From Candidatus Nomurabacteria bacterium (lineage in GTDB: Bacteria > Patescibacteriota > Saccharimonadia > Saccharimonadales > JAGQNJ01): a stretch of 64,000 bases of DNA. Shown one piece after another: positions 20,478 through 62,844 of this stretch. The notes under the pieces are model-generated. The model searched no databases and had not been told where the DNA came from. It saw nothing but the letters and a program-made list of their open reading frames with translations. The stretch covers positions 545,890 to 609,889 of the forward strand of contig CP060231.1 in NCBI GenBank assembly GCA_023898625.1. The letters are read 5' to 3'. The position numbers and the translations under genes are program-made. The first letter of the stretch is position 1, and every line of letters begins with the position of its first letter.

Positions 20478-22508
20478 CTACACCTCAATCGGCTCATCTT
20501 CCGAGTCACTATCTTTAACGTCTTGTGTTTCATGAGACTCGGTCTTATCTGCTTTTTTCTTTTTCGTTCCATCTTCGTATTCATACGCATACAAATCCCG
20601 TGAAGACTCTATAACTTTCTGAGCAATAGCCTTATCTCCCTCGTCTTCCAAAAGTATCGTCTCCCCAGACATCGGTTCTTGGGACCGTATAGCACTTAGC
20701 CGTGCATAGAAGTTGTAACTTGGTAGGTTGGCTATCTCGCCTTCATCAATAAATGGTTTAAACAACGGCAATACTAGTTGTTCATCCACCGGGCTACCAG
20801 TCCTAAAGCTAATAACTGTACCGACGTTTGCCAGGATTATCTGTACGAGTCTTTGTTCGTCTTGTTGGGCTGTAGATTGCTCAGCCATAGTCAGGAACAG
20901 CTTGTACTTCCGAGCTTCAGATAGCATCTGGACAAACGGCATGGTCGCAAAGTTCTGGAACTCATCAACGTAGAGGTAGAATGGCTCACGCTCATCTTGA
21001 GCAAGTCGAGAACGCCTCAATGCAGCTAATTGAAGCTTAGCCAGCACCGCAGTGCCGAATAGTTCCGAAGTATCCTCGCCTAGATTCCCCTTACTAAAGT
21101 TACAGATCAGGATCTTGCCCGAAGACAAGATATCATCAAAGTCGATGGTTGATTTTGGTCGGCCCATAACTCGTTTGGTGCTTGGCGAAAACTCAAAGCG
21201 TCCAATCTTACTGGTCACGCCATGGCTCATCTTAACTCGTTGCATGGCACCAGCCTTGCCAAGTTCGTTCTGCCAGAAGTTCTTTAAGGTTCCGGCTGGC
21301 AAGGCATTCGTTATCTTCTTTCGGTAGGTATCGTTAGTGAGCAGTTCAAAGATAGTAAAAATAGTCGGACTATCAGTTGTTAGAGCAGTTTGAATCGCAT
21401 TTCTAAGCACATATTCAATTCTATGGCCACCCGAGTCATCATCAGAGAAAATTTTACGTAGTACCGAGATAACTGATTCAGTGACTCGATCTTTTTCTCG
21501 CTCTAAGGCACTGCCAGTCAGTCCGTCAGGTATTTCTAGCAGGTTCATAGCCAGTGGATGGTCGATATCGTCAGGGTTAAAGTAGATGACGTCTTTAATG
21601 CGATCTTTCGGAATATATTTCAGTAGCGTCAGTGCCATATCCCCATGTGGGTCAATCACAGCCAGGCCTTTACCGTCCCTAATATCTTGAACGATACCGT
21701 ACTGGAGCATGGTGGTTTTACCGTTTCCGGTTCCGCCGATGATATAAACATGGCGTTCGCGTTCAGCTTCGGCGAGGCCTATTAAGGTTTCACTGCCAAG
21801 ATGACTGTTCTTGCCTAAGGTCACATCAAGATATTTAGCACTCTTAAGTGAAGTTGGGGCTGGCAGGGTTTTACTGAGTGACTTTGAGACGTTTTCTGTT
21901 CGAGCAGACGAACTATGAGGAAAATGGTACATGCTGCTTAGTTCAGTTGAGCTTAAAACATTACTATTTCTATGAATCAGTGACGGCAAGCGGTGATCTA
22001 GCACCCATATCCGATGTCGTACACCAAGCCATGGTATCCAGACCACGGTAGTTCGTAGTCTTTGCCAAGTTGGCGTAGCATAGGTAGCCATCGAGTTCGC
22101 CAGTGATTGGGCTCTAGATTTAGCTCGAGCTTTGTCTGTAGTTATGATCTGAGTCCGTATATCGACGTAAAAGAGATCTTGAGTGAGCTTGTCATGCATT
22201 CGGTCCAAAAGCTCTTGTTCGGCCGGAGGTATATGTGTATTAGTCGGTAAATTGTTAGTGGCCTTAGAACTAGCCGGTATATCGTGATAGAGAAAACCAT
22301 AGATCATACTCCAGACAATGACGAATGGTAGTTTTAGAATGGCAAAGATAATCCGAAAGATGCTTTTATGGCCAAACTTTTTCTCAAGGCTTGATCCAGA
22401 CCAATAGCCCTGGCGTATCTTACGATCAATCGCAAAGGCTTCAGAGATAACGGCCGGCGTAACGACGAGTTGCAAGCTAACTTGTTCATTATCTTCTAGT
22501 TTTGTCAT
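20478..22508 (-). CDS. VirD4/TraD-like type IV coupling protein-type ATPase (C-terminal major part)
   Basis: 676 aa. N-terminal TM segment, Walker A IIGGTGNGKTT, Walker B FYLYVDEFQNF, C-terminal ILANVGTVISFRTG. Start overlaps the upstream ORF stop (ATGA). Confidence 0.75.
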   Translation of the reverse strand: MTKLEDNEQVSLQLVVTPAVISEAFAIDRKIRQGYWSGSSLEKKFGHKSIFRIIFAILKLPFVIVWSMIYGFLYHDIPASSKATNNLPTNTHIPPAEQELLDRMHDKLTQDLFYVDIRTQIITTDKARAKSRAQSLANSMATYATPTWQRLRTTVVWIPWLGVRHRIWVLDHRLPSLIHRNSNVLSSTELSSMYHFPHSSSARTENVSKSLSKTLPAPTSLKSAKYLDVTLGKNSHLGSETLIGLAEAERERHVYIIGGTGNGKTTMLQYGIVQDIRDGKGLAVIDPHGDMALTLLKYIPKDRIKDVIYFNPDDIDHPLAMNLLEIPDGLTGSALEREKDRVTESVISVLRKIFSDDDSGGHRIEYVLRNAIQTALTTDSPTIFTIFELLTNDTYRKKITNALPAGTLKNFWQNELGKAGAMQRVKMSHGVTSKIGRFEFSPSTKRVMGRPKSTIDFDDILSSGKILICNFSKGNLGEDTSELFGTAVLAKLQLAALRRSRLAQDEREPFYLYVDEFQNFATMPFVQMLSEARKYKLFLTMAEQSTAQQDEQRLVQIILANVGTVISFRTGSPVDEQLVLPLFKPFIDEGEIANLPSYNFYARLSAIRSQEPMSGETILLEDEGDKAIAQKVIESSRDLYAYEYEDGTKKKKADKTESHETQDVKDSDSEDEPIEV

Positions 22509-23147: not shown

Positions 23148-24022
23148 GGTTTAGTGAACGAACAAGGAACAACCCGCTAAAGTAAGTAGTGTCAAAACTA
23201 TTTAACTAAAGAAAGGGTTGTTCCAATGAACAGTCTAGCAGGACTGCCACGAGAGTGGCAGTGCCACAAACAAATATTTAAAATGGTCTACGGAACTACT
23301 TGTTGTCCCTCGTGTAACAACAGATTGCTGTTTCGACCTAGTTATGCCTGGTGTAGACTTTGTCGAACTAAGCACTCAGTGAAGTCTGTAACCTGGCTGA
23401 GGCAATCTAATCTGCCGTTCCAGAGTATCTGGCTACTCCTGTGGTGTTGGCAAAAGCAGAAGAGTACAGGTACTACTGTAGATATCTCAGGTGTTAGCTA
23501 CCCAACCGTCCGACGCTGGTTTAGAAGATTCCGGGAACAAATTCCAGCCAGTACTCTCCAGCTGTCTGGTATTGTCGAAGTAGATGAGAGTTTCTTTGGC
23601 AGACAGAAGTTTGGTAGCCAGACAATTGTCGTGGGTGCCATTGAGCGAGATACCAGACGAGTACGTCTCCAGGTTATTCCAGACAGAGCCCAAGACAGTT
23701 TAGAAATGTTTCTTAGCACTACAGTGAACCGTGGCTCACATATTACGACAGATGCTCACAGTGGCTACAACGACCTAGAGTTCTACGGTTTCTCCCACGA
23801 AAGATGCAACCACAGTAACGGACACTTTGGTCCAACCAACATGATTGAGAACTTCTGGGGTGTACTGAAGAGATCTCTCAGAAGACTATATGGCAAGCTA
23901 ACGCTTGCTGACTTACCAAATATATTAAAAGAGTGGGAACAAAGACAAAACCAACCAGAAATGTTTTACACTGTAACTAACTACTTACAAGCTACGCTTG
24001 TTCTGAGTTAGTTCTGTGAACC
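23148..24022 (+). mobile_element. IS1595-family insertion sequence, copy 2 (875 bp)
   Basis: IRs are GGTTTAGTGAAC (23148-23159) and the reverse complement of 24011-24022, GGTTCACAGAAC. Flanks are ACGAAAAAC (left) and ACGAAAAC (right), a near-perfect TSD differing by one A. Internal leader taaagtaagtagtgtcaa is shared with copy 1. Confidence 0.85.
23226..24011 (+). CDS. IS1595-family (ISXO2-like) DDE transposase
   Basis: 261 aa, colinear with 8729..9511. Most residues are identical by eye. Confidence 0.9.
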   Translation: MNSLAGLPREWQCHKQIFKMVYGTTCCPSCNNRLLFRPSYAWCRLCRTKHSVKSVTWLRQSNLPFQSIWLLLWCWQKQKSTGTTVDISGVSYPTVRRWFRRFREQIPASTLQLSGIVEVDESFFGRQKFGSQTIVVGAIERDTRRVRLQVIPDRAQDSLEMFLSTTVNRGSHITTDAHSGYNDLEFYGFSHERCNHSNGHFGPTNMIENFWGVLKRSLRRLYGKLTLADLPNILKEWEQRQNQPEMFYTVTNYLQATLVLS

Positions 24023-24138: not shown

Positions 24139-24783
24139 CTATGGAAACAGCGAGTTCTCTTCTACAACCCTTTCTTTCAGTATTTCGGCATATGATGCAT
24201 CATCGTGTTCATATTTTCTAAAGAAACTCCATACGACACAATCAACGACCTGTAGTCCTTTTTCTTGTGCAGGTGTTTTAATATCGATATGAATATCTAG
24301 TTTGTGATTATCTTTTGTTTGCTTCTTTAGATAGGCTGCAAAGTTCTCATTGAGAAACCTGTTTGTTTCCCGTTTTGAGGCCACGAAACAAATCTCATGA
24401 TCAAGAGGAACCAACTTTTTGCTTATCATACGATCGAGTAGTATGTTGACGACATAGTTATAGAGCACGTGCTTTTCGTCTTGCAAGCGGGTATAAACTT
24501 TCTGCTTATTAAGGCGGATTGTCAGTATATGTACATCTTTTTCGGCCAAATTACGCAAAAGACGTATACGGGTCACTGGCTTTTCCTTATACGCGTGCAA
24601 CGTACCAGGATGTCCTTTGAGTTCCTTCTTGGAAAATCCCTTGTATAGTTTCTTGACAATTTTATCTATGGGTTTTTTGTCGTGAGTAAAGACAAAACTT
24701 ACGACAAAGTGTTTACTTGTCTTTGATTTAGTGAAATCAAAACCTAAATCTCCGCTTTCATCCATGTAGATATAGCTGCGCAT
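24139..24783 (-). CDS. DUF3800-family protein
   Basis: Track ORF 24139..24879; the likely start is M33 (24783). MRSYIYMDESGDLGFDF.. is the typical DUF3800 N-terminus (recalled). Confidence 0.7.
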   Translation of the reverse strand: MRSYIYMDESGDLGFDFTKSKTSKHFVVSFVFTHDKKPIDKIVKKLYKGFSKKELKGHPGTLHAYKEKPVTRIRLLRNLAEKDVHILTIRLNKQKVYTRLQDEKHVLYNYVVNILLDRMISKKLVPLDHEICFVASKRETNRFLNENFAAYLKKQTKDNHKLDIHIDIKTPAQEKGLQVVDCVVWSFFRKYEHDDASYAEILKERVVEENSLFP

Positions 24784-24881
24784 GTATCTATTATATATCG
24801 TATATAGCAATAGTCCATCTCTGTTCATAAAGTATCTGCAGATCAAAAGATAAATGATACGCTTTGTAACCAGGGCCACCC

Positions 24882-25507: not shown

Positions 25508-25987
25508 TCACCAGAACCTGTTATTCATCTTGGTAAACTGAATCATCTGATGTGCTAGCTCAGTCGAATTGGTACGACGCATGACTTCTCGACTCAGTGC
25601 TTGCGACAAAATGTTCAGTGAGCCCTCCCATAATATCTGCCCGTCAATAATTGCAAGCTTGCGGTGACGCATATCATTAAAGAAATAGGCTTTAACACCG
25701 TTATCTCTAAGAATTCGGATGGATTTCCAGGCTTGTATCTCTAGTAGCTTATCATGGTGACGTGGATTTCGGGTATTTACTCGAATCTTCACACCTTTTC
25801 TGGTTAGTTGATTAAATAGCCCTGCAAAGTACAGCGCTCTTTTTTCGGTCAAGAACGGGCTTTCAATAACTACCACTGATTGTGCTCTTTTCACATCTCG
25901 CACAAATGCGTTATAGAAGGAGTGCTCACTGTATAGCGAGGTATTTGTTAGCACGGCCTTTGGCGTCCTACGAAGCAACCTAAACAT
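25508..25987 (-). CDS. single-HKD phospholipase-D-family (Nuc-like) nuclease
   Basis: 159 aa. HKD motif HRKLAIID followed by GSLNILS. Its start overlaps the recombinase stop by 8 nt. Confidence 0.75.
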   Translation of the reverse strand: MFRLLRRTPKAVLTNTSLYSEHSFYNAFVRDVKRAQSVVVIESPFLTEKRALYFAGLFNQLTRKGVKIRVNTRNPRHHDKLLEIQAWKSIRILRDNGVKAYFFNDMRHRKLAIIDGQILWEGSLNILSQALSREVMRRTNSTELAHQMIQFTKMNNRFW

Positions 25988-27758
25988 TGTTATTCTCCTG
26001 AACCGTGAGTTTATTCGCTAGTTCCTCCAGTTCACGATAAAAGATTTCGGAATGAGTACCCTTTAGGTTCACCACAAGGGACTCAAGACTTTCTTGGGTC
26101 TTTTTTGTTGCTTCAAAACAGAGGTCAAGTGGCAATAAGGAAGGTGTTCCAGAATTTATTTCCGAGTATCTTGGGATCCGGTCAAAAAGTACACCAAAGA
26201 ACTGAGCTTTTTTGACTGGATCAATCTGTTTAAGCATCAATTTGTCCATATTTTCCAGAAAGAATTTCACCCTCGAAACAATTCGTTCTATTTTACTCAT
26301 GTCTACACCTGCTATGGCTTTCTTGTCGGACTCTAGCTGCTGTATCTGTGTTTCGATATGCATTAAATCTTCCTCCATATATTTTATTGCTGTCGCCGAT
26401 GTTAGTGACTTCATGCTTTGGAGTGTTTGTCGCAGCTCGGCTTTTAGGTCGACGATACGCTCATTATAGTTTTCAAGTACTTTCTCAGTATGTTGCTGAC
26501 GCTTTTCCCACTCGGCTAGAACTGCATCGGTAAGCATAGTGATTTGCTCCTGAGAGGGTTTTATGAGACTAATAAACTCAGTTACCGTAGCTTCAAGCTC
26601 ATCTTTTGGCACTCGAAAGTAGTGGCCATGATTGCTACAGTGATATGCTGGGTAGTATTTGCCGTTCTTGCCACGCGATGCACTGCCGAGTAATGGTCGA
26701 CCACATTTTGAACAGCCCACAAAACGCTTATACGGAAAGTCCGGGCTGCGCACTCCGGCATTAACGATCACTCGTTCTGAATCTTTAGTCAAGAACTCAA
26801 TATCGTCACCATTTTCTACCAAGGTCACTTTACCCTTGTTGGCTCGATTGAAAAGCTCAATACTCACCAGCCCCTCGAAGGCACATTTAACCGGCTTACC
26901 CTCCGTCCACTTCTCTACATTTATACCAGCGTATATCGGATGACGAATTATCTTCCATAACGCTTTCGGACCGAGAGGATCGCCACCGGTTTTAGAGATA
27001 ATCCGTGTACGATCATGCTTGCTTCGTTTGTAGCGTGTACGGGTCTTGAATCCAAGCGCGTTTAATTGTGCACATATCTCGGTATCTGTATACGCACCAA
27101 GCGCTCGTATCTCGAACAGCTTACGAAGTAGCGGCGCCTCCTTGGGGTGTGGCTTTAAGATAGTTCGCTTGCCGTTACGAGTTTCGACTTTTTCGCTGAT
27201 ATAGCCGTAGGGTGCTTGACGCATCCAGTAGCCGAGGCGTGTGTAGCGAACTTCGGCACCAATCATACGGCTTAGAATGTCGCGCAGCTCATCTTTGGCT
27301 CGTTCAGCCTCAAGATACTCAGTCTTCTGACTAGGGGAGTATTTACTCCAGCTATACTCGACGCCGAGGTGCTCAAGGGTGTTTACCTTTTATGAGCTGA
27401 TCACGCCATAGATATCCACCAGAGATATGTCGAGTTTTTCGAGTTGTAGTTTCAATTGGTCATAAGGCGAACCGCCACCACGTGTGAACCGGTCAATCGA
27501 TTTGATTATGAAATACTGAATATTGTTCTTTCGGTCTTTGCAGTAGTTGATGGCTTGTTGCATTGGCTGCTTTTCTTTTGAGCCAGACTCCAGAAAGACA
27601 AACTGTTCCTTGACATGGATATTATGTGTTTCGGCGTAACGAAGAAGCTGCTCGCGCTGTGCCTCGGGGGAGTCACCATCCGTACCTTGCCTAGTTGTAC
27701 TAACGCGAATAGCAATAACAGCGTTTGGCTTCAGTCTTGGTTGCATAATTCCTCGCAT
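25980..27758 (-). pseudogene. large serine recombinase (element 2) interrupted by one in-frame TAA
   Basis: Track ORFs 27390..27758 (resolvase domain, AIRVSTTRQGTDGDSPEAQ) and 25980..27266 are in the same frame. Across the gap the sequence reads YGVISS*KVNTLEHLG, against YGVISQEKVNTLEHLG in the element 1 paralog. The stop is TAA at 27392-27390. Confidence 0.8.
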
Positions 27759-27868
27759 ATTATGTCTGTGAGTAGGATTGCCAGTACCTCGATCCGCTCA
27801 TCAGGCGTCATTTCAAAGACTTCTGGAAGCTTGATTTCTTTATTGCTTGACCCTACTGTTCTAGCCAT
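27731..27868 (-). CDS. small ORF (45 aa) overlapping the recombinase start; paralog of 16214..16327
   Basis: MARTVGSSNKEIKLPEVFEMTPDERIEVLAILLTDIICEELCNQD shares the DE.I..LA..L......EE pattern with the element 1 small ORF. Confidence 0.35.
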   Translation of the reverse strand: MARTVGSSNKEIKLPEVFEMTPDERIEVLAILLTDIICEELCNQD

Positions 27869-28071
27869 AATTTTTTACCCCCGGTACTAGTTTAAACTAT
27901 CCTTCATAGGTATAGTATAGCACCTATATAAGGATAGTTGCAATAGTTTTTATGCTTAAAATTGTCTATTAAAATCCCCACTAAGGACAGTGCGGTATAT
28001 TTACTTATTTAATCTGTTAACTATTTACTTTTATATTCTCTTCTTTTATATATACATATAGGAGAAAAAAC

Positions 28072-28860
28072 ATGAGACGCGTCGAAGTGAAGACTAGGTA
28101 CACAATTAGTAAATCGCAGGAGTCTATATTACGGGCTTTATACAAATATCGATTCTTAACCAGTGATCTATTAGCAGCATTACTGAAAAAAGATAGATCA
28201 ACTATTTATGAGAGATTGGCAGTATTAGTAGATCAGGGTTATGTAGCAAGGAAGTATAATAGTACCTATAGAATAGACAGACGACCAGCCGCCTATTACT
28301 TAGCACCTGCTGGGATACGCCACTTAAAGAAGGCTGGCTTTAGTCGTACACAGATACATTACAAAAGCAAAGACTTTACTGAATCACAGATCGATGAATA
28401 CTACCGCTATCCCAAGCTTAGTATGGCTGTGCAGAGAAACTACCCTCAGACATTCTATACAATTACAAAATATCAGCTAGATCCAGAAGAATATATCAAG
28501 CCCCTGCCTTGGATACTGCTAGAGTCATATAATGAAGGTATACCGTCCTTCTTCATGGAATATATACCAGCTGGTGAACAGAGCTGGATTATTCGGAAAC
28601 GTATCAATGCTCACATAGACTACGCCGATGAGGAGGCTGAATATACCTATCCATATTTATTATTGGTGGCTGGCAACGAAAATACTGAGAAACGGATTAT
28701 TAAGATGTCGACAGACCTTATATGGGACTCCGAGCTATACACCACAACAGAGGAGAGACTACTGAGTGGCAAGAAAGAGGTTTGGCTACTGCCGCAGGAG
28801 GTAGACTTGGATGAAGATCTGGTGTACCACTCCTTGCCAATGGAATACGAGGAAGACTAA
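28072..28860 (+). CDS. replication-relaxation family protein (element 2)
   Basis: 262 aa. ISKSQESILRALYKYRFLTSDLLA..LAVLVDQGYVA..RRPAAYYLAPAG is colinear with 16523..17257. Confidence 0.7.
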   Translation: MRRVEVKTRYTISKSQESILRALYKYRFLTSDLLAALLKKDRSTIYERLAVLVDQGYVARKYNSTYRIDRRPAAYYLAPAGIRHLKKAGFSRTQIHYKSKDFTESQIDEYYRYPKLSMAVQRNYPQTFYTITKYQLDPEEYIKPLPWILLESYNEGIPSFFMEYIPAGEQSWIIRKRINAHIDYADEEAEYTYPYLLLVAGNENTEKRIIKMSTDLIWDSELYTTTEERLLSGKKEVWLLPQEVDLDEDLVYHSLPMEYEED

Positions 28861-29034
28861 ACGCCTAGCAGCTTACAGCGGATACTAGCTGGTATGTTAT
28901 CTAAATGTACAATATCATATCTGTAAAAGTGAGATGTATTTTAAATGTTAAGTTAGATACAACCCCTGTTAATTATATAATTTTGTTAGATAATATAAGT
29001 CTTACAGGTGAGATATTGTGTTACAATATAAGTT

Positions 29035-30195
29035 ATGATTAAGATGCCAGCACCAAACTATAACTCCAAGCTTACGGATATTATTATTCAGCTAGAGCAT
29101 TTGCGTGGTCGTAGTATCTCTAGCACTACGAGTCAACAGGTATTCGTGCAGCTTAAGAGCTTATTTCACATTATTGAGGCATTGTCATCAGCCCGTATAG
29201 AGGGCAATCACACTACGCTGGCTGGATTCGTAGAAAAACGTGTTCAAAAAGATAAAAGTAGCCAAGCGAAAGATGAAAGCATGAAAGAGATTATCAATCT
29301 CATGCAGGCTTTAGACTTTATTGATGAGCATATTGCCGATACTGAGATAGATAAAGGCTTTACGCTAGAACTTCACAGAATTGTTGTAGACGGTCTTACC
29401 CGTGAGGGAGATTCTAACGCTGGTAACTATCGCAGTAGTGAACGCAGTATTGCAGGATCAGACCATGTTTTGCCAAGTCACTACGATATCCCTGATTTAA
29501 TGGAGGAACTATTCGACTATATCAACGATGAGGCGAATAGCCGTGACGAATTACTCAAGATCGCTCTCACGCATCACCGATTTGTCTGGATTCATCCATT
29601 TGGCAATGGTAACGGCCGTACTGTTCGTTTACTTACCTATGCCATGCTATGCAAAAAAGGCTATATTGAGCCAAATGTACTGCGTTTATTCAATCCTACA
29701 GCGGTTTTTGCTGGTGATCGCCAGAAATATTATGACATGCTAGAGCGTGCCGATAAGGGCACGGATAAAGGTCTTCTCGGCTGGTGTGAATACTTCTTAA
29801 GTGGTATCAAAGACGAAACTGAAAAAACACTGCGTCTAGCTGATAGTAACTTCGTTAATAGCAAATTACTGCTACCAGCTGTATCTCGCTTAAATTCCGC
29901 TGGTGTACTCACGAAACTTGAAACAAGTATCTTAGAGAGAGCTATCCGTAAAAAAACTATCCGAGCGTCAGATATTGCTGATTTGTGGGATAAAGATGTT
30001 ACATCTGGTGCAATTGCCAACCAAATCAGGCGTATGCGCGAAGCTGGCTATCTAAAGGCTGAAAAAGAAGGTGGCCGTGAATACAGCATAAACTTCATAG
30101 ACAACCAACTAACCCGCCTTGTTCTTGATCAGATGGAAAACGAAAGACTACTACCGATTCGAGTAGACGAAATGGTGAGCGGAGAAAATAAATAG
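29035..30195 (+). CDS. Fic-family protein (class II-like, N-terminal inhibitory helix) with C-terminal winged-helix domain
   Basis: Fic motif HPFGNGNGRTVR, with N in place of the usual D/E. The [ST]xxxE[GN] inhibitory motif is SARIEGN, upstream. C-terminal ..IANQIRRMREAGYLKAEKEGGREYS is wHTH-like. Stop TAG abuts the next ATG. Confidence 0.85.
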   Translation: MIKMPAPNYNSKLTDIIIQLEHLRGRSISSTTSQQVFVQLKSLFHIIEALSSARIEGNHTTLAGFVEKRVQKDKSSQAKDESMKEIINLMQALDFIDEHIADTEIDKGFTLELHRIVVDGLTREGDSNAGNYRSSERSIAGSDHVLPSHYDIPDLMEELFDYINDEANSRDELLKIALTHHRFVWIHPFGNGNGRTVRLLTYAMLCKKGYIEPNVLRLFNPTAVFAGDRQKYYDMLERADKGTDKGLLGWCEYFLSGIKDETEKTLRLADSNFVNSKLLLPAVSRLNSAGVLTKLETSILERAIRKKTIRASDIADLWDKDVTSGAIANQIRRMREAGYLKAEKEGGREYSINFIDNQLTRLVLDQMENERLLPIRVDEMVSGENK

Positions 30196-33100
30196 ATGGG
30201 ACTAAGGGTATATAAAGGTCGTGCGGCTAAAAGTACTGAGAACACATTTTTTAGAGAATTCGCAGAGAAGCTATCTTTGTTGTTCGACCAAAAAGAAATA
30301 ACCGGTGTTCTGATAGGATTTCCTGAGTGCAAGGCAGATGCCACCCTGGCTCCAGACGTCCTATTGATGACGGGGCACGCAGTATTACTAATAGATCTAA
30401 AAAATTATTCAGACGGCGGAACTGTAATGTTACCATCTGAAGATTATTTTGATAATGGATCATGGTTATTTAAGAATAACAGCGAAGAAGTTATCATCAA
30501 GGGCGGTTCATATTCAAATCCATTCAAACAGGTAGGTCGGCAGCGATTCAAGATGATCGATTTGATACAAGAATCAGTACAGGGATTTAACCCGAGACAT
30601 TTGACCACTGGCGTGATATTCCAAAATGACGTTAAGATTCAAGGCTCGGTAGTTCGTAAGTGGCGAAATATGTTCTTCGTTGGCGACGTTAAATCGTACA
30701 CAAATGATATTTACGATTTCATAAATGTCATTGATGATGAAATATCCCTTACGCCAGAGACGATGAGTCAAATAAGAGATTATTTTGATGCTGAAGAATA
30801 CGAAATCAATATAGATACCTCTTCTGCTAAAGCGGTACAGGTTGTCGATAAACAGCCAGTATCTCGTTCATCTGCGCCTACTATAATTACTAACAATCCA
30901 GACACTATGGAGCAGGCGCTTCAGAATGATCTTAAGCAAGCTAAAAGTATAGATATTGCAACCGCATATTTTTATTTTTCTGGCTTTCGTAGGCTAGCCA
31001 AGGAGTTGAAAGACGTCAAAATTCGTATACTTGTTGGCAAGGCTATAGATCCAAGGCGGATTGATGAAATCGCTGCCTGGCTCAAGCAGGATCCAAATGT
31101 GTCGCTAGATACATTTCAGCTACCTCCCGGTAAGTCGAAGACTGGGCGCAAGCAAGACTATGTTGATGGTTTTATTGAGCTTTATAATAAATCAGCTTTG
31201 TCAGATCAATTCGATGACACCGAGGCGCAAGAGATGCAGCGCATTTTTGAGGATAAATTAAAAGACGGATCTCTTGAAATACGCATGACAGAGAAACAGA
31301 ATCCTCAGCACGGTAAAATCTATGTCCTGGATAATGGCGCCACCTACATGGGCTCATCGAATTTTACATATTCAGGACTACTAGGTCAGGGCGAAATCAA
31401 TGAGCGCCACAATGACTCCGAACACCACACCAAGTACAAGGGCCTGTTCGAAAAATTATGGGATGACGGCGAAAACATAGATATCCAAACATCTACCAGC
31501 AACTCTGACTTCTTAAAGCAAATCGAAGATCGTCTGTGGCTACATTCTACACCTGATCCGTATAAAGTGTTTGTGCGTATTCTCCACGAGATGTATGCAG
31601 AGAACGAAGAGCTAGAAGAAGTTAAAAGTCCATCGGTTATAACCGAAGGTAGATTCTCTAATCTCAAGTATCAATTGGATGCTATTAAGGGCGGAATAGA
31701 TAGGATCAGTAAGTACAATGGTGTAATTGTGGCAGATGTGGTTGGTCTAGGTAAGTCAATTATCGCCTCTGCAATTGCCCATAATCTTGGCATGCGTACT
31801 ATTATAATTACCCCTCCTCACCTAATGAGCCAGTGGCAAGATTATGTAAGTGAGTTTAATATTCCGGGCGCAATTGTCGAGAGTGGCGGAAAAATAGAAA
31901 AACTTCACAGCGATCACGCTACATCGGAAACACCATATCTTTACATCATAGATGAGGCGCATCGTTACAGAAATGAGACTACCCAAGATTATGTTTGGCT
32001 TCATCAACTTACGAGATCACACGTTGAAAACAAAGTTGTGTTACTAACTGCAACACCGTATAACAATCGACCACAAGATTTATTTGCCATGATTAAATTA
32101 TTCCAGACCCCAAGCAAGTCTACGTTAAATACCGTAGACAACTTAAGTGTACGATTTAGAGGGCTGATAACTGAATATCAACGGCTAGAACGTATTGGCA
32201 AAAAGCATATGACTATAGACATCAAGAATCAGCTAAGTGATTTGGGGTCTGAGTTGCGTCGCATAATCGAACCGGTTGTTATACGTCGTTCCCGTATTGA
32301 TCTAAGGCAAATCAAGGAATATGCCGACGATCTAAAAGCGCAAAATATCGAGTTCCCTGAAGTAGTCGGTCCGGAACTCATAGAATACGAACTCGGTGAC
32401 CTAAAGCAGAAGTATATCGATACACTGGTTAGTATAGTTCGTGAAAAAGAAGAACATGGTTTTATAGGCGCTCGTTATATGCCGTCAACCTACATGAAAT
32501 CTGATATGGAAGACGCCTTTAAAGAAAAATACGGACATTTCTTCGATGTTAGTGATCTAGCAACTCCTCAACGTAACTTGGCTTCATTTATGAAAAGTCT
32601 GCTTGTGCAACGATTTGAAAGTTCTAAATACGCCTTCAAATCTACACTCACAAAGATACATCACTCAAACGAAATGATCGTTAAGTGGTGGGAAGCCAAG
32701 GGTATGGTGCCTATTCTTAAAAAAGGTGAATTAGTCGATCCTGAGGACGAAAGTATTGAAGAAATTATGGCACAGATTGACGCTGGCATTGACGATTTAT
32801 CTGAAGAAGCTATAAATCGCATTAAAAAGATCGCCGTGCCGATTCCAAAGAGTTACTTTCAGCCAAGTTTTATTGAAGACGTGAAACAAGATATAAAACT
32901 GTTGGAACAAATTTATGGTGACTGGTTTATCGATGATGACATTGGCCATGATCCAAAGTTAGAAGAGGTTCGCGAAAAGATACAGCAGATGCTCGCAGAA
33001 AATCCTAACCGAAAAATCGTTATATTCTCTATGTATTCAGACACCGCACAGTATGTATATAAATCTTTAATCAATAGTGGTTTCGAGAGAACACTCTTCT

Positions 33101-34152
33101 ACTATGGTGGATCTAGCGCAAAAGATAAACAAACAGTATCAGCTAACTTTGACGCATCGTACCCAGCGGAACGTCAGGAAAACGATTACGACATAATTGT
33201 AGCGACAGATGCATTAAGTGAAGGCTTCAACTTGCACCGGGCCGGAATTGTTATCAACTACGATATCCCGTATAACCCAACGCGAGTGGTTCAGCGTATT
33301 GGTCGTATTAATCGCATCAACAAAAAGGTCTTTGATCAAATTTATATCTACAATTGCTTCCCAACTGCTATTGGTGATGAAGTTGTCAATGTTCGTGGTA
33401 TAGCCACCCTTAAAATGCTTCTTATTAATACTATCGTTGGTAGTGATACAAAAACATTAACCGACGACGAAGATCTAAGAAGTTACTTCAAACGGCAATA
33501 CAAAGAAGCTGACGATGAGCAAAATGAAGAGTCTTGGGATAATAAATATCGCAACATCTACGATAGCGTCAAACACAATCAAGCCCTTATAGACGAAGTA
33601 ATGAAAATCCCGGAGCGTACACGGATTGTGCGCAACAACCAAAAAGAAAACAGCGCTGTATCCTTTGCTAAAAGAGGTAATGGCTTATTATTTGCTACGG
33701 CTAATGTATACGACATCGAAGCCAGTATTGTGCCTCCTGAAGTTGCCCTACCGATCTTTAGCGCAGATCCAAGCGAAACATCTAGCGAAGGAGACGCAAG
33801 TCTAGATAAAAAGTTCAAGTTACTGCATGACCAAATAATGACTACTAAACCCGCTCCAGTTGTCAAAGGGACACGCGCTGAGGCACTCACCAAGGTTCGC
33901 TTCTTGCGAGATAACTATATCCCCGAAAAAGACTTTTTGAGTGATCTGCACGACATTATTAAGAACTACGACGACCTATCAGACGGTGAAATGAAGTTTA
34001 TACGTCAGCTTAACCTAACCGACCAAACTGAAGCGGTGGAAGCTCTAAAAGATAAATTCAGCATTCATTACCTAGATAACATCAGAGACAGAGCAGATGG
34101 AATCGATAGGGCCACCGAAATAATTATGTTCACCGAGGATCTACGCAAATGA
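30196..34152 (+). CDS. NERD - PLD(HKD) - SNF2-family helicase fusion protein (1318 aa)
   Basis: NERD-like N-terminus (..VLLMTGHAVLLIDLKNYSDG..). HKD motif QHGKIYVLD..GSSNFT. SNF2 motifs ADVVGLGKS (I), YIIDEAHRYRN (II), LLTATPYNN (III), QRIGRINR (VI). Confidence 0.85.
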   Translation: MGLRVYKGRAAKSTENTFFREFAEKLSLLFDQKEITGVLIGFPECKADATLAPDVLLMTGHAVLLIDLKNYSDGGTVMLPSEDYFDNGSWLFKNNSEEVIIKGGSYSNPFKQVGRQRFKMIDLIQESVQGFNPRHLTTGVIFQNDVKIQGSVVRKWRNMFFVGDVKSYTNDIYDFINVIDDEISLTPETMSQIRDYFDAEEYEINIDTSSAKAVQVVDKQPVSRSSAPTIITNNPDTMEQALQNDLKQAKSIDIATAYFYFSGFRRLAKELKDVKIRILVGKAIDPRRIDEIAAWLKQDPNVSLDTFQLPPGKSKTGRKQDYVDGFIELYNKSALSDQFDDTEAQEMQRIFEDKLKDGSLEIRMTEKQNPQHGKIYVLDNGATYMGSSNFTYSGLLGQGEINERHNDSEHHTKYKGLFEKLWDDGENIDIQTSTSNSDFLKQIEDRLWLHSTPDPYKVFVRILHEMYAENEELEEVKSPSVITEGRFSNLKYQLDAIKGGIDRISKYNGVIVADVVGLGKSIIASAIAHNLGMRTIIITPPHLMSQWQDYVSEFNIPGAIVESGGKIEKLHSDHATSETPYLYIIDEAHRYRNETTQDYVWLHQLTRSHVENKVVLLTATPYNNRPQDLFAMIKLFQTPSKSTLNTVDNLSVRFRGLITEYQRLERIGKKHMTIDIKNQLSDLGSELRRIIEPVVIRRSRIDLRQIKEYADDLKAQNIEFPEVVGPELIEYELGDLKQKYIDTLVSIVREKEEHGFIGARYMPSTYMKSDMEDAFKEKYGHFFDVSDLATPQRNLASFMKSLLVQRFESSKYAFKSTLTKIHHSNEMIVKWWEAKGMVPILKKGELVDPEDESIEEIMAQIDAGIDDLSEEAINRIKKIAVPIPKSYFQPSFIEDVKQDIKLLEQIYGDWFIDDDIGHDPKLEEVREKIQQMLAENPNRKIVIFSMYSDTAQYVYKSLINSGFERTLFYYGGSSAKDKQTVSANFDASYPAERQENDYDIIVATDALSEGFNLHRAGIVINYDIPYNPTRVVQRIGRINRINKKVFDQIYIYNCFPTAIGDEVVNVRGIATLKMLLINTIVGSDTKTLTDDEDLRSYFKRQYKEADDEQNEESWDNKYRNIYDSVKHNQALIDEVMKIPERTRIVRNNQKENSAVSFAKRGNGLLFATANVYDIEASIVPPEVALPIFSADPSETSSEGDASLDKKFKLLHDQIMTTKPAPVVKGTRAEALTKVRFLRDNYIPEKDFLSDLHDIIKNYDDLSDGEMKFIRQLNLTDQTEAVEALKDKFSIHYLDNIRDRADGIDRATEIIMFTEDLRK

Positions 34153-37100
34153 TGAACCAAAAAATCTTTTTAGAAAATGCATACAACCATACAGATTTTA
34201 TAAACTTTGTTAATGAGTTTCTACCTAGCTTTATATATGATGAGGCATCAATTTCTTTGGCTGAAAACTCACTTTTTGAATCAGCCAGAATCCTGGGCAC
34301 CTCAATAGATGGCGAGTTGGCAACGATTGAAATTAATTTGAGTCCGGAGAGCCAGGGCAAGCGTATTGCAATTACCAAAGAAGCTTTCAAAATTTTGCGC
34401 GACCATGCAATCGCCAATGCGTTAATAGTATTTACTGACGGTACAGATAACTGGAGGCTATCGTTACTGACAACCACGATAAAGTTGGATGAAAAAGGCA
34501 AAGTCATTACAGAATCTAGCAATCCACGAAGATATTCGTTTTTCCTAGGCCTCAATGCCAAGACTCGCACGCCTTATGAATCTTTAATCAAAAAAGGTTC
34601 AGTAAAAAATCTGAATGAGCTACAAGAACGCTTCTCTGTAGAGGTAGTCAATAAGCAGTTCTACGAACTCATTGCCGATCTATTCACAAAGCTTGTTGGT
34701 GGAGAGCGTAGCAAAACCAAAAAATATCCTGGTCTTCTAAAAATCAATGGCATAATAAGCCAAAATGTAGAACACCAAGAATTTGCTGTTCGCCTCATCG
34801 GGCGTATCATCTTCAGTTGGTTTTTAAAGGAGAAGAAGAGCGATGCAGGTGTGCCAATCATTCCAAATGAATTGCTATCATCGGATGCTTTGGCCCAAAA
34901 TGAAGACTACTATCACAGCATATTAGAGCCACTATTCTTTGAGCTTTTAAATAAACGTGTTGAACATCGTCACGAGAGTCTGCGCGAGGAGCCGTTTAGT
35001 ACCGTACCGTACTTAAACGGTGGTCTATTTAGCCCTCAGTACAGCGATTTTTATAATCAGAAATCATTCAACGGCGCCGGCACACCTGGCCTCACTCACA
35101 TACCCGACGCTTGGTTCAAGGAACTATTCGAAGTCCTTGAGCAATATAACTTCACAGTAGATGAAAACACCAGTTACGATGTAGACTTGTCTATCGATCC
35201 AGAAATGCTCGGGCGTATATTTGAGAACTTACTTGCTGAGATAAATCCAGAAACCGGTGAGTCAGCCCGCAAAAGCACTGGTAGCTTCTACACTCCGCGC
35301 GAAATTGTGGATTATATGGTAGATAGTTCTCTGCTTGAATTTCTGAAGAACAAAACGAGCATCGAAGAGGCAAAGCTCAAAGCTCTTATTACTTGGGAAC
35401 AGGACGATGACTTGTTGCAACCATTAGAGGACACCGAAAGAGAAAGGGTTGTGGATGCGTTAGCGGATCTCACTATTCTTGACCCTGCCTGTGGGTCCGG
35501 CGCATTCCCGATAGGAATACTACAGAAGGTAGTATATGTGTTGCAACAGGCAGATCCAGATGCAAAGATTTGGCTCCGGCATCAAATTGGGGTAGATGCA
35601 ACACCCGAATTCCGACAATTTATTGAAAGCCAAAACTATGACTACATTCGCAAGCTTGGAGTAATACGTAAGTCTATTTTTGGCGTAGATATACAGCCTA
35701 TTGCTACAGAAATATCGAGATTACGTTGCTTCTTAACTTTAGTCATCGAAGAAAACGTCACTGACGATATTTCCACAAATCGTGGCATAGAACCACTTCC
35801 GAATCTTGAGTTTAAATTTGTTGCAGCCAATTCACTTATCGGCCTCAAAGATACCGAGAAAAATTTACTCTTGCAAGAAGATGACAATCTAAAAGAACTA
35901 GAGGCAAGATTGTTCGAACTCAGAACCTCGCGATACTTCAGGACGAAGTCTTACCAAGAAAAAAGGAGCTTACAGCAGGAAGACAAGCAACTCTGTGATG
36001 AAATAATTCTTGCAACGGCTGGTGTGGAGGGAGTAAACCAAGCAAATCTTGCGAAATGGCAAGCTGAGCTTAATGAAGTAAAGTCTAAATTGAATTCAAT
36101 GGAATCTATATTCTCCGAACATTCACAGAGTCGGCTTTTTGGAGAAGACGAAGCAACACAACTTAAGATCATAACGCTCGAAGAAACATCTTTGCGTAAT
36201 CAAGCCAAGATGTTGCGAAGCAAGATCAAAAATGAACTGAACAAATCTACTTCTCCAGATCTCGCTAAAAATCTTCAAACTATCGTCGGGTGGAACCCGT
36301 ACCAGTCTGGAATTGTAGCCAATTATTTTGATTCAGAGTGGATGTTTGGTATTACAAAATTCGATATTGTAATCGGCAATCCACCTTACATCCAGCTACA
36401 GAAAAATGGTGGTGAGCTAGCTAATCTATATAAGGATGAAGATTACAAGACTTTTGCACGCACTGGCGATATCTATAGCCTTTTCTACGAAAGAGGGCTA
36501 GAGCTGACAAAAGCTGGTTCTGGCCTTCTATGCTACATCACCAGCAACAAATGGATGCGCGCCGGCTACGGCGACAAAACCCGTGACTACTTCGCTAGCA
36601 AAAACCCAATAAGCCTGATAGATTTCGGTGGCTTCAAAGTGTTTGAGAGTGCCACGGTGGATACCAATATCTTACTGATTCAAAACACCATCAACCAGCA
36701 TCAGCTCACAGCCTCTCACTTCAAAAACGATTACCAAAAGGGTAGTTCTGTTAAAGAGTATTTTGACACCCACAGCACCCTACTGCCTAACCTCACAAGT
36801 GACACTTGGTTCATCGGCGATAGCGCTGAGCTGGCTCTCAAGACTAAGATAGAATCCGTCGGCACGCCACTCAAAAACTGGGATATCAAGATATATCGTG
36901 GTGTATTAACTGGATGCAACGAAGCCTTCATCATCGACGAACAAACCAAAGCAAGGCTCATCGCCGAAGACCCAAATAGCGCTGACATCATCAAGCCATT
37001 ACTGCGCGGCCGCGATATCAAACGCTATTCATATGACTTTCAGAATCTATATATACTCGCGACAGGCTACGATACCGACATCCAGTCAAAATACCCTGCG

Positions 37101-37640
37101 ATATACAATTATTTAAAGTCAGTTGGCGACAAAATAGAATCAGGCGAATTAAAGGTAAAAGGCAAAGGTGTATTTACTCGTGATGACCAGGGCAAGAACT
37201 GGTGGAATCTACGCGCCTGTGATTATTACGATGAATTCGAAAAAGAGAAAATAGCTTGGTCCGACATATCTACAGAGTCAAGTTTTACATGGGCTAGTCA
37301 AAAACTATACGTAAATAATACAGGCTACATACTTACTGGTGCTAACATGGCTTATCTATTAGCAATTCTAAACTCTAAACTTACTAATTGGTATTATCCT
37401 AAAATAGCCTCTGATTTAGGTACAGGACTAAGATATATTTATCAATTTATTATCCGAATACCAGTTCCTAAACAAAGCGAGTCCAATCTAGCTATAGTTT
37501 CTGAAATAGAAAAAATAGTAGAAGATATCACCACCGCTGGCCACTCCACTCCAGAGCAAGACACCCAGTTAGACCAACTAGTCTACCAACTCTACAACCT
37601 CACCCCCGAAGAAATCGCCATAATCAAAGACACAAAATGA
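34149..37640 (+). CDS. large gamma-class N6-adenine DNA methyltransferase with C-terminal target-recognition region (Eco57I/type IIG/PglX-like), 1163 aa
   Basis: ATGA overlap with the helicase stop. Motif I ILDPACGSGAFP, motif IV VIGNPPYIQLQ. TaqI_C-like YRGVLTGCNEAFIID..LLRGRDIKRY. No PD-(D/E)xK nuclease motif noticed by eye. Confidence 0.85.
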   Translation: MMNQKIFLENAYNHTDFINFVNEFLPSFIYDEASISLAENSLFESARILGTSIDGELATIEINLSPESQGKRIAITKEAFKILRDHAIANALIVFTDGTDNWRLSLLTTTIKLDEKGKVITESSNPRRYSFFLGLNAKTRTPYESLIKKGSVKNLNELQERFSVEVVNKQFYELIADLFTKLVGGERSKTKKYPGLLKINGIISQNVEHQEFAVRLIGRIIFSWFLKEKKSDAGVPIIPNELLSSDALAQNEDYYHSILEPLFFELLNKRVEHRHESLREEPFSTVPYLNGGLFSPQYSDFYNQKSFNGAGTPGLTHIPDAWFKELFEVLEQYNFTVDENTSYDVDLSIDPEMLGRIFENLLAEINPETGESARKSTGSFYTPREIVDYMVDSSLLEFLKNKTSIEEAKLKALITWEQDDDLLQPLEDTERERVVDALADLTILDPACGSGAFPIGILQKVVYVLQQADPDAKIWLRHQIGVDATPEFRQFIESQNYDYIRKLGVIRKSIFGVDIQPIATEISRLRCFLTLVIEENVTDDISTNRGIEPLPNLEFKFVAANSLIGLKDTEKNLLLQEDDNLKELEARLFELRTSRYFRTKSYQEKRSLQQEDKQLCDEIILATAGVEGVNQANLAKWQAELNEVKSKLNSMESIFSEHSQSRLFGEDEATQLKIITLEETSLRNQAKMLRSKIKNELNKSTSPDLAKNLQTIVGWNPYQSGIVANYFDSEWMFGITKFDIVIGNPPYIQLQKNGGELANLYKDEDYKTFARTGDIYSLFYERGLELTKAGSGLLCYITSNKWMRAGYGDKTRDYFASKNPISLIDFGGFKVFESATVDTNILLIQNTINQHQLTASHFKNDYQKGSSVKEYFDTHSTLLPNLTSDTWFIGDSAELALKTKIESVGTPLKNWDIKIYRGVLTGCNEAFIIDEQTKARLIAEDPNSADIIKPLLRGRDIKRYSYDFQNLYILATGYDTDIQSKYPAIYNYLKSVGDKIESGELKVKGKGVFTRDDQGKNWWNLRACDYYDEFEKEKIAWSDISTESSFTWASQKLYVNNTGYILTGANMAYLLAILNSKLTNWYYPKIASDLGTGLRYIYQFIIRIPVPKQSESNLAIVSEIEKIVEDITTAGHSTPEQDTQLDQLVYQLYNLTPEEIAIIKDTK

Positions 37641-38275
37641 TAGACCCGGGCCGTCTGGACTTGTCGTATTACCCATCGCAACCAGAGTCTAAGCTAGACA
37701 AAAAATGGCGTTTAGCTGATGAGAATGAGGCGCTATATCTTCGGCTTAAATCGAGCATTGTTAAGTCTAATTTGGATGACCTGACTAAGAATATATCGTT
37801 ATTGCACATAGAAACTCAATGGTTTGAATGGGCACTCAACGATCTTTATGACAGACTGGCTATAACAAGCAGTAAGCAGAATCCAATAGTACGGATGGCT
37901 GACATATCAAATACTACAGCCAAAAAATTTAATAAAAACGGTAAAACTCAAGGTTTTGCCGACCTTACCCTAGGCGGTAAACATTATTGGCTTAGTCAAT
38001 TTAGATACAAGGAAGTCGGTGAGAATAAAAAGTATACAATATATCTAAATTACTTAGATTTGTTTATCAAAAATCGAAACAATATCATACATCATTTCTT
38101 CTCACCTAAGACCACTACGACAACAAAGCTTAAGCAAATTTCTGCAGCGTTAGTAATTGTTGAGGCTCTGATTGCAGAAACGGGTCAGCGCGATAGTTTT
38201 TTGGCAGAATATCTTTTCAATAATTTGGCCAAATATTGGGACTTGAATACCTCGATCAACAAGCTAAAGACCTGA
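37637..38275 (+). CDS. hypothetical protein with HEPN-type Rx4H motif (Abi-like)
   Basis: ATGA overlap with the MTase stop. 212 aa and mostly helical-looking. ..FIKNRNNIIHHFF.. fits the HEPN RNxxxH signature. No other motif recognised. Confidence 0.6.
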   Translation: MIDPGRLDLSYYPSQPESKLDKKWRLADENEALYLRLKSSIVKSNLDDLTKNISLLHIETQWFEWALNDLYDRLAITSSKQNPIVRMADISNTTAKKFNKNGKTQGFADLTLGGKHYWLSQFRYKEVGENKKYTIYLNYLDLFIKNRNNIIHHFFSPKTTTTTKLKQISAALVIVEALIAETGQRDSFLAEYLFNNLAKYWDLNTSINKLKT

Positions 38276-61407: not shown

Positions 61408-62844
61408 ATGAACTACTACGTAACAACATCAATACCATACGTTAATGGTGAACCACATTTAGGCCATGCTCTAGAGTTTTTGTATGCAGATGTTTTGGCC
61501 AGGCACGCAAGACTCCAAAAAACTCCAACACTATTTGTCACTGGCACAGATGAACACGGGAGTAAAATAGCAGAGAAGGCTAACGATCTGGGCATTACTC
61601 CACAGCAGTTGGTAGACGAAAATAGCGCCAAGTTTCGTGAACTACAAAAAATGCTCAATATTAGCAATGATAGGTTTATTCGCACAACTGATGAAGGTCA
61701 TATTCAACGCGCACAGATAATTTGGAATGAACTAAAAGATGATATTTACAAAGGGAGCTACGAGGGGTGGTACTGTATCGGATGTGAAACATTTGTGCCA
61801 GATGCTAAGGTCAAAGAAAACAACAATATTTGTCCTGACCATAATCGACCTTACGAGCGACTTAAGGAGGATAATTATTTCTTTAATTTATCAAAATATG
61901 CTAATCAAATTCGTGAAGCAATTGTTTCTAAGGAGTTTCGTGTTACGCCTAAAACGAGGCGAAACGAAATATTGCATGTAATTAGCTCGGGGTTAGAAGA
62001 TATAAGTATTTCAAGACCAAAAGATAAGATTTCTTGGGGTATTCCTGTGCCAGGTGATGATAGTCAAGTTATGTATGTATGGTTTGAGGCACTCCTTAAC
62101 TACATTACGGCTTTGGGGTATCCTGAAAGCAAAGATTTTAAAGAATATTGGCCAGCGAACGTGCAAGTTATTGGTAAAGATATTATTCGGCATCACGGGG
62201 CCATGTGGCCTGGGATGTTGCTAGCGCTTGGTCTGCCCTTACCAAAGACTTTGTATGTACATGGTTTTATTAATGCAGAGGGTGGCGTCAAGATGAGCAA
62301 ATCTCTTGGTAATGTCGTTTCCCCAGCTGATATTTTGTCTAAATATGATCCAGATGTGTTTAGGTATTTCTTTATGAGACATATCCCAAGTTACGATGAC
62401 GGTGACTTTTCATGGACACGGCTTGACGAGGTTTATAATAGTGAGCTTGCCAACGAGCTTGGTAACGCCGTGCAACGCACTGCGTCTATGATAAATCGTT
62501 ACGAAGACGGAGTTCTTGGAGATATCCCAGAGACAGAACACGATATCGGCCAGTATCAGCAGTTCTTGAATGATTGTCGCTTCGACAAGGCATTAGAAGA
62601 TGTTTGGGAGCGTGTAAGGAGCTTGAATCAATATATTGAAGAACAAAAGCCTTGGGAAATAGCAAAAACTAAAGACAAACAGCAATTACGTAGTGTGTTA
62701 GCATACCAAGTTGCGTATCTATTACAAATCGCAGATTTGCTTGAGCCTTTTATGCCATCAACTGCAGTGAAGATTAGGCATGTTTTTGCTGAAGGTGTAA
62801 TAAGGCCAATCGAAGGTACTTTGTTCCCAAGAACCACGCAGTAA
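61408..62844 (+). CDS. metG: methionine--tRNA ligase (short form, no C-terminal tRNA-binding domain)
   Basis: YVNGEPHLGHALE (HIGH), WYCIGCETF, VKMSKSLGN (KMSKS). Confidence 0.9.
   Translation: MNYYVTTSIPYVNGEPHLGHALEFLYADVLARHARLQKTPTLFVTGTDEHGSKIAEKANDLGITPQQLVDENSAKFRELQKMLNISNDRFIRTTDEGHIQRAQIIWNELKDDIYKGSYEGWYCIGCETFVPDAKVKENNNICPDHNRPYERLKEDNYFFNLSKYANQIREAIVSKEFRVTPKTRRNEILHVISSGLEDISISRPKDKISWGIPVPGDDSQVMYVWFEALLNYITALGYPESKDFKEYWPANVQVIGKDIIRHHGAMWPGMLLALGLPLPKTLYVHGFINAEGGVKMSKSLGNVVSPADILSKYDPDVFRYFFMRHIPSYDDGDFSWTRLDEVYNSELANELGNAVQRTASMINRYEDGVLGDIPETEHDIGQYQQFLNDCRFDKALEDVWERVRSLNQYIEEQKPWEIAKTKDKQQLRSVLAYQVAYLLQIADLLEPFMPSTAVKIRHVFAEGVIRPIEGTLFPRTTQ

Follow-up and report, generated by a model that had tools for sequence, protein, structure and literature searches.

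What does a small gene contribute when it closes an operon that otherwise resembles a restriction-modification system? This question is raised by a 64,000-nucleotide (nt) stretch of the genome of a Candidatus Nomurabacteria bacterium (assembly GCA_023898625.1, contig CP060231.1, positions 545,890 to 609,889; hereafter, the window), in which a four-gene operon encodes, in this order, a Fic/DOC protein, a NERD-HKD-SNF2 helicase, a DNA methyltransferase and a 212-amino-acid (aa) protein. An original prediction made from the DNA sequence had proposed that the 212-aa protein carries a HEPN-like RNxxxH motif and could be an RNase effector or sensor that adds an abortive arm to the module. Our follow-up analysis suggests that this protein probably represents a new and rare HEPN family and is probably an RNA-targeting accessory effector. 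More specifically, we lean, with reservations set out below, towards the reading that it is a standalone HEPN protein serving as the 'backup' or abortive effector of the restriction-like operon.

The 212-aa protein is encoded by positions 37637..38275 (+ strand) in the window's list of open reading frames (ORFs). The gene is the last of the operon, as had been predicted, and is followed by a 54-nt spacer and a 66-aa helix-turn-helix (HTH) gene. Its ATG (37637-37639) overlaps the TGA stop codon (37638-37640) of the 1163-aa methyltransferase ORF, and the resulting ATGA start/stop overlap (37637..37640, + strand) can be read directly at the junction (ACAAAATGATAG). This arrangement suggests translational coupling of the 212-aa gene to the methyltransferase gene. 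The original prediction had taken the coupling to imply stoichiometric co-expression; co-expression is indeed suggested, whereas stoichiometry does not follow from the overlap. Comparisons with the homologues in two related loci (L003 and L011, described below) give a proportion of nonsynonymous differences (pN) of 0.16, a proportion of synonymous differences (pS) of about 0.75 and a ratio of nonsynonymous to synonymous substitution rates (dN/dS) of about 0.03-0.05, with dS saturated. Judged by these substitution patterns, the gene is under purifying selection and the ORF is a genuine, selected gene. In agreement with the earlier statement that no other domain is recognisable, the protein passes no curated cut-off in Pfam, NCBIfam, PADLOC or PHROGs, and an identical database protein is annotated only as 'hypothetical protein [Candidatus Nomurabacteria bacterium]'. 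Homologues, dN/dS, an AlphaFold model and sub-threshold profile matches together lead us to predict that the gene encodes a standalone member of the HEPN superfamily, from a family that is rare and unclassified.

The predicted RNase active-site motif lies within the peptide FIKNRNNIIHHFF, in which residues R147-N148-N149-I150-I151-H152 (codons 38075..38092, + strand; R147 at nt 38075-38077 and H152 at nt 38090-38092) form an Rx4H motif with an asparagine after the arginine. The RNxxxH form described in the original prediction is thus present in the translation. The window contains 45 ORFs of 150 aa or more; in these, RNxxxH is found 3 times, compared with 0.9 expected from shuffles, and the broader Rx4-6H pattern 55 times, compared with 52.9. 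The motif match alone is therefore at about chance level, and its weight comes from conservation and position. A further RNxxxH match (KTRRNEILHVIS) is found in a 478-aa ORF from about position 61408 onward (+ strand) and, at the window's chance rate, may mean nothing.

Conservation of the motif among homologues, a check that had been set beforehand, was borne out in an alignment of 14 homologous sequences that reaches down to 21% identity. Only ten columns of this alignment are invariant (L67, N82, G113, L119, Y133, R147, N148, H152, F155 and Y200), and the three motif residues R147, N148 and H152 are among them (14/14 sequences). Position 64, a glutamate in the window protein (codon 37826..37828, + strand), is E or D in all 14 sequences. 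The basic residue of an Ex3[KR] pattern in the same helix is mostly N in the family and K in one sequence, and H153, the second histidine of the peptide, which directly follows H152, is not conserved among the 14.

HEPN domains have been described as four-helix bundles marked out by inserts between helices 2 and 3, with Rx4-6H at the end of helix 3, an N, D or H after the arginine and a conserved acid in helix 2 (PMC3710099). An AlphaFold model of the 212-aa protein built from the 14 sequences (predicted local distance difference test (pLDDT) 86.6, predicted template modelling score (pTM) 0.80; five models at pLDDT 85.5-86.6) contains helices at residues 19-43, 48-78 and 127-153 and, after a loop, at 161-195, with an insert of short strands and helices at 79-126. 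In this model, the motif (147-152) sits at the C-terminal end of helix 127-153 and E64, the acidic residue expected near a HEPN active site, lies within helix 48-78. The predicted four long helices, the insert between the second and third and the motif ending the third agree with the four-helix layout named as a check of the original prediction. Across all 14 sequences, R147-N148-x3-H152 provides the Rx4-6H motif with a polar residue after the arginine, and E/D64 provides the acid of helix 2. The model matches the published HEPN description on every point that can be checked from sequence and secondary structure.

Profile searches point to the same superfamily. When scanned singly, 11 of 12 family members match the Pfam model HEPN_RiboL-PSP (Pfam accession PF18735) below threshold, with scores of 16.9 bits for the window protein and 23.6 bits (E 5.3e-5) for the family consensus. 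The consensus also matches DUF3644 and HEPN_MAE_28990 (Pfam accession PF18737, E 0.009), the latter a family described in operons with DNA methylase genes (Pfam PF18737). In PADLOC, weak matches of the consensus and five natural members lie mostly within the C-terminal HEPN regions of the Csx1, Csm6 and CARF_HEPN models, or on DUF3644. The matches to PF18735, PF18737 and the Csx1/Csm6/CARF-HEPN models cover the segment of the 212-aa protein that runs from helix 3 through the motif to helix 4. Weak matches from two independent libraries are, at the level of sequence profiles, almost wholly to HEPN families. A sub-threshold Pfam match to HipA_C, present in four of six close members and in no distant ones, was rejected as spurious. 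We consider it likely that the 212-aa family belongs to the HEPN superfamily, while by its profile scores the protein falls into no curated HEPN family.

We turn to the genes that share the operon with the 212-aa gene. The first operon gene (29035..30195, + strand) encodes a 386-aa, SoFic-like Fic/DOC protein (Pfam Fic 1.3e-19; PADLOC SoFic 1.6e-52). It ends at 30195 and abuts, with a junction of 0 nt, the start of the second gene (30196..34152, + strand), which encodes a 1318-aa protein with NERD, HKD/PLD nuclease and SNF2 helicase domains that is presumed to be the restriction motor. This helicase matches PLDc_2, SNF2-rel_dom, Helicase_C and, weakly, NERD in Pfam and 'HKD+Snf2' (8e-42) and DrmD (7e-35) in PADLOC, and its NCBIfam match to DrmD is below cut-off. 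The third gene (34149..37640, + strand) encodes the 1163-aa methyltransferase, an Eco57I-type N6-adenine DNA methyltransferase with a TaqI_C specificity domain (type IIG-like, DrmMI/PglX-like; Pfam Eco57I 1.2e-34, TaqI_C 3.6e-13; PADLOC REase_MTase_IIG 2e-147). It is joined to the helicase gene by an ATGA overlap too, such that the helicase/methyltransferase and methyltransferase/212-aa junctions are both 4 nt.

A comparison of the methyltransferase with its metagenomic homologues provides a view of the position that the 212-aa gene occupies. We identified 16 such homologues, almost all of which lie behind a helicase of the HKD-SNF2 type (~1100 aa) and which are usually followed at short distance by a gene from some other family. 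In three loci, the methyltransferase is directly followed by ApeA (ApeA_NTD1 plus HEPN_Apea; L021:7429-8232, L031:8517-9818 and L032:9130-10431). Other occupants of this third slot are Fic (L015:5680-6825), a PolB-type exonuclease with a Pif1 helicase (L019:7070-9048), a 227-aa unknown protein with DUF3800 (L022:7327-9017; L022-L025) and a 313-aa unknown protein containing RHGWNIAH (L017:9354-10295). Because sister systems hold ApeA, Fic, exonuclease plus Pif1 and unknown proteins at this position, the sequence comparison suggests that the slot after the methyltransferase acts as a variable accessory-effector position. The ApeA-bearing locus is homologous to the window operon (helicase E 7e-46, methyltransferase E 3e-79), and the ApeA proteins of these sister systems carry the RNxxxH-form motif CRNDLTHE. 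ApeA has been characterised experimentally as an abortive HEPN tRNA anticodon nuclease that is activated by deoxydinucleotides (bioRxiv 10.64898/2026.01.26.701840). It thus occupies the same slot after the methyltransferase and has the same motif form as the 212-aa protein. ApeA differs in its N-terminal sensor domain of ~270 aa, which binds deoxydinucleotides, and in forming large oligomers; the 212-aa protein lacks such a domain and has no Pfam match to ApeA_NTD1 or HEPN_Apea.

Mobile loci that combine restriction-modification genes with a HEPN RNase and a DOC toxin have been interpreted as 'three-level' defence acting on DNA, RNA and protein, for which PrrC-EcoprrI serves as the model of the mechanism (PMC3710099). 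Like the loci described there, the window operon combines restriction-modification-type genes, a HEPN-motif protein and Fic/DOC. In a mechanism modelled on this precedent, the helicase-nuclease and the methyltransferase would restrict foreign DNA in a restriction-modification-like manner, and the HEPN protein would be made along with the methyltransferase by termination-reinitiation. It might be held latent, possibly bound to an upstream partner, as PrrC is by EcoprrI. If the DNA-level defence is overwhelmed or disabled during an infection, the protein would cleave tRNA or mRNA of the cell or the virus, with growth arrest or abortive infection as the outcome. The putative catalytic centre would be a metal-independent endoRNase site composed of R147, N148 and H152 at the end of helix 3, helped by E64 in helix 2, and by analogy with HEPN enzymes this site may be completed across a dimer. 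We infer HEPN homology, RNase activity, dimerisation, latency, trigger and abortive outcome from what is directly observed or modelled, namely the gene, its conservation, the invariance of the motif, the predicted helix order and the operon layout. The parallel with PrrC has its limits. In PrrC and RloC an N-terminal ABC/Rad50-like ATPase regulates the nuclease, whereas the 212-aa protein has no ATPase domain, and the partner of PrrC is a type I hsdMSR system, whereas the partner system in the window combines an HKD-SNF2 helicase with a type IIG-like methyltransferase.

The family to which the 212-aa protein belongs is small. A search of 5.8 billion proteins returned six clusters at 49-100% identity, and a profile search of 1.84 billion cluster representatives returned 12 clusters (50% identity) at E <= 0.001 with full-length alignments; the homologues span 21-72% identity to the 212-aa protein. 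The genome loci with relatives are all labelled Saccharibacteria, and the viral contigs searched contain no relative of the family. Index entries for the identical protein exist in 99 collection blocks, and the six places shown, out of 23 contigs read, all have the same context. The order Fic-helicase-methyltransferase-small gene recurs, together with the ATGA overlap, in L003, L011 and L033-L037. Among these island variants, Fic and helicase are 92-94% identical, and the methyltransferases (window 34149-37640, L003:6624-10004 and L011:6771-10004; lengths 1163, 1126 and 1077 aa) share 62-100% identity over the N-terminal ~550 aa and 6-40% over the C-terminal half, which comprises the catalytic C-part and TaqI_C. 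From these alignments, it looks as if specificity domains have been swapped while the rest of the operon stayed 92-94% conserved. The small proteins of the window and L003 share 70% identity. Those of L003 and L011 share 94%, although the specificity regions of these two loci are very different. In view of such different target-recognition domains, we rejected the small protein as a specificity partner of the methyltransferase.

Two of the variant loci show additional changes around the operon's end. In L038, whose scaffold carries an identical 212-aa protein, the methyltransferase ORF (L038:6750-10004) has 1084 aa rather than 1163 and no gene call in the source; an in-frame deletion could account for this, as could an artefact of the assembly or scaffold. 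In L003, the conserved 66-aa HTH gene stands 2 kb further from the small gene than in the window. Three genes (DUF1508, an antitoxin-like HTH + SocA_Panacea gene and a 145-aa gene) are inserted between the two at L003:10929-12560, an insertion that the window lacks.

Several results weigh against a HEPN effector tied to the restriction-like operon, and the first group concerns the fold. The gathering threshold of PF18735 (28.4 bits) is not reached, the best score being 23.6 bits. Foldseek searches with two AlphaFold models against the PDB, and with the better one against BFVD, returned nothing at E <= 0.001; the best E values lie between 0.08 and 0.6 with template modelling (TM) scores of at most 0.41 (0.24-0.31 for PDB matches), and the top entries are generic long-helix proteins. 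Csm6 (6tug) recurs among the non-significant matches (E 0.5-1.7, TM 0.20-0.30). Sequence and profile searches of the PDB (A1, A2, family consensus and P0010) found no HEPN chain, only coiled-coil noise. An hhalign comparison with three ApeA HEPN domains aligns the motifs with each other, but the match is not significant (P 0.033, probability 1.5%). The HEPN assignment of the original prediction is supported in part, by the invariance of the motif, the helix order and the weak HEPN profiles, while no curated threshold is passed and no Foldseek match is significant. Likewise, the comparison with HEPN families that it had called for produced sub-threshold matches, including one to the MAE_28990/MAE_18760-like family, and no significant structural match in the PDB or BFVD.

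The second group of contrary results concerns genomic context. The pairing with a methyltransferase is limited to one island lineage (window, L003, L011 and L033-L038), and none of the 16 metagenomic methyltransferase homologues has the 212-aa family downstream. Relatives at 47-52% identity occur in four other Saccharibacteria loci with no methyltransferase nearby. In these loci, the homologue is ATGA-coupled behind a conserved protein of 187 aa that carries a hydrophobic helix at its C-terminus (L001:9441-10004, L007:281-844, L013:9441-10004 and L014:9441-10004; 74-81% identity among the four), and the surroundings also carry HNH, OLD-type ATPase and resolvase genes. The 187-aa protein has no detectable domain and no Pfam match, and it may be a keeper, an antitoxin or a membrane anchor; BLASTP revealed no homology between it and any part of the methyltransferase. 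Two distant members (L008:10001-10516 and L009:2310-2945; 21-25% identity) retain RNxxxH and stand alone among housekeeping genes: one of them is placed between FtsK and RNase J, and one begins 8 nt downstream of a class II aminoacyl-tRNA synthetase gene. A constitutively toxic RNase would hardly be expected as a solo gene, and these surroundings hint at a non-defence, RNA-metabolism origin of the family. The 212-aa protein contains no sensor domain, and no neutraliser was identified. Finally, HEPN domains linked to restriction-modification systems were found fused to nucleases, helicases and ATPases, not to methylases (PMC3710099); the window gene is coupled to a methyltransferase, that is, to a partner class to which HEPN domains were not fused in that 2013 survey. 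The functional tie to the methyltransferase that the original prediction assumed is thus weaker than it had appeared, with the family found elsewhere behind the 187-aa partner or alone.

How do other explanations fare? That the ORF and its motif arose by chance and yield no functional protein is refuted by the conservation data and deserves practically no credence: the near-chance frequency of RNxxxH and Rx4-6H in the window is what would speak for it, set against full-length alignments with 12 cluster representatives among 1.84 billion proteins, strong purifying selection, a confident structure prediction and a conserved start position with its operon coupling. A more serious, though still unlikely, explanation is that a self-contained HEPN RNase came to stand at the end of the operon in one island lineage and works independently of the restriction-modification-like proteins, whether as a toxin or addiction factor of mobile elements or as a co-opted housekeeping RNA-processing enzyme of Patescibacteria. 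In its favour are the single island lineage with methyltransferase pairing, the ~50%-identity relatives behind the 187-aa membrane protein near HNH, OLD-type ATPase and resolvase genes, the distant solo members in core-gene neighbourhoods, the 16 methyltransferase homologues followed by other genes and the 94% identity of the L003 and L011 small proteins behind differing specificity domains. Yet the ATGA overlap has been kept while the small protein diverged to 70% identity and the C-terminal half of the methyltransferase to 6-40%, and the slot in sister systems repeatedly holds defence or toxin genes, including ApeA and Fic, as expected if the position is functional. In addition, every non-solo locus couples the gene to an upstream partner, such that a partner seems to be needed.

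It is also conceivable, if rather improbable, that the protein is a non-catalytic helical adaptor, regulator or 'reader' of the helicase-methyltransferase complex, in which RNxxxH would serve binding or structure and the role would be comparable to that of the standalone DUF3780 gene of Type-2 BREX-related systems. Almost all of those systems include a small alpha+beta protein of unknown function that stands alone (PMC12839542), and the absence of a significant structural or curated-profile HEPN match, the unusually long modelled helices (25-35 residues) and the small beta element modelled in the insert would fit a subunit of this kind. However, no member of the family has a Pfam match to DUF3780 at E <= 1, and the weak matches that do occur fall on HEPN models in two independent libraries. 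The invariant R, N and H correspond to the catalytic triplet at its position in the HEPN fold and are accompanied by the acid of helix 2. Moreover, the small protein does not co-vary with the specificity domain of the methyltransferase, and the family is also found without a helicase or methyltransferase.

The two partners of the small gene raise a further idea, which we regard as doubtful: that the family, so far encountered only in Patescibacteria, forms a new lineage of HEPN RNases, and that the protein translated directly upstream, whatever it may be, determines the latency of each member. The keeper would then be the DNA methyltransferase in the window island and the small membrane protein in other Saccharibacteria, and the family would amount to a 'plug-in' abortive RNase recruited by different sensors. 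In the window island, it would be triggered when the methyltransferase is lost or inhibited, as might happen through a phage anti-restriction protein.

The accessory-effector reading that we favour can also be set beside other known systems. Type-2 BREX-related systems have cores of an HKD-SNF2 helicase and an N6-methyltransferase, with standalone HEPN genes nearby as backup effectors, according to a 2026 survey (PMC12839542). These systems and class 1 DISARM resemble the window operon in combining an HKD/PLD nuclease, an SNF2 helicase and a large N6-adenine methyltransferase. No DUF499 ATPase, DUF3780, DrmA or DrmB was found among the ORFs scanned (20.4-40.6 kb of the window). The full Type-2 BREX-related set (DUF499, N6-methyltransferase, HKD-SNF2 and DUF3780) is thus incomplete in the window, where the core has only two genes, and of DISARM there are only DrmD-like, DrmC-like (fused) and DrmMI-like parts, all below NCBIfam cut-offs. 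HEPN-MNT type II/VII toxin-antitoxin systems share with the window a small standalone HEPN toxin gene coupled to an upstream gene. Their partner is a minimal nucleotidyltransferase, whereas the 212-aa gene adjoins a methyltransferase and an HTH gene and its relatives elsewhere adjoin the 187-aa membrane protein. Unlike PF18735 and CARF-HEPN proteins, the 212-aa protein has no L-PSP or CARF domain.

The surroundings of the operon are those of a mobile element. Directly upstream lies a mobile-element backbone (25980..28860) in which Pfam detects a split serine recombinase (- strand) and Replic_Relax (28072-28860, + strand). The recombinase is divided into a 428-aa part with Recombinase and Zn-ribbon domains (25980-27266, - strand) and a 122-aa Resolvase N-terminal part (27390-27758, - strand). 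In L003, the gene is intact and encodes 570 aa; a short 118-aa call recurs in L033-L038. Because the recombinase is split in comparison with the intact gene of L003, the island may have been immobilised in the window lineage. Further upstream are genes for a TraG/VirD4-like coupling protein of a type IV secretion system (20478-22508, - strand), an IS1595 transposase (23226-24011, + strand), a DUF3800 protein (24139-24879, - strand) and a 159-aa PLD/Nuc-like protein (25508-25987, - strand). DUF3800 also adjoins the sister systems L022-L025. Replic_Relax, the serine recombinase, the PLD protein, DUF3800, the IS1595 transposase and the secretion-system coupling protein upstream thus mark the operon as part of an integrative mobile island, the host of which belongs to the Patescibacteria (labelled Saccharibacteria or Nomurabacteria). 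The best sigma-70-like promoter match, a weak one, lies just before the Fic gene (28954..28981, + strand; TAGATA-16-TATAAT, 10/12 positions), and promoter and terminator scans gave region-wide counts no higher than those of shuffles or background.

A HEPN-like gene that ends a mobile defence operon is an arrangement already known from other bacteria, and it is the family itself that is probably new and rare. The finding is unsurprising in that respect; it overturns no current view, and its relevance is mainly to specialists in defence systems and Patescibacteria. If confirmed, it would extend the list of HEPN families by one that is very rare and minimal, with a single domain of 212 aa. It would also mean that Patescibacteria, with their tiny genomes, possess layered defence of the 'DNA + RNA + protein' kind that was predicted in 2013, and that a compact two-gene core of HKD-SNF2 helicase and type IIG-like methyltransferase with a swappable third slot may be a source of further effectors.

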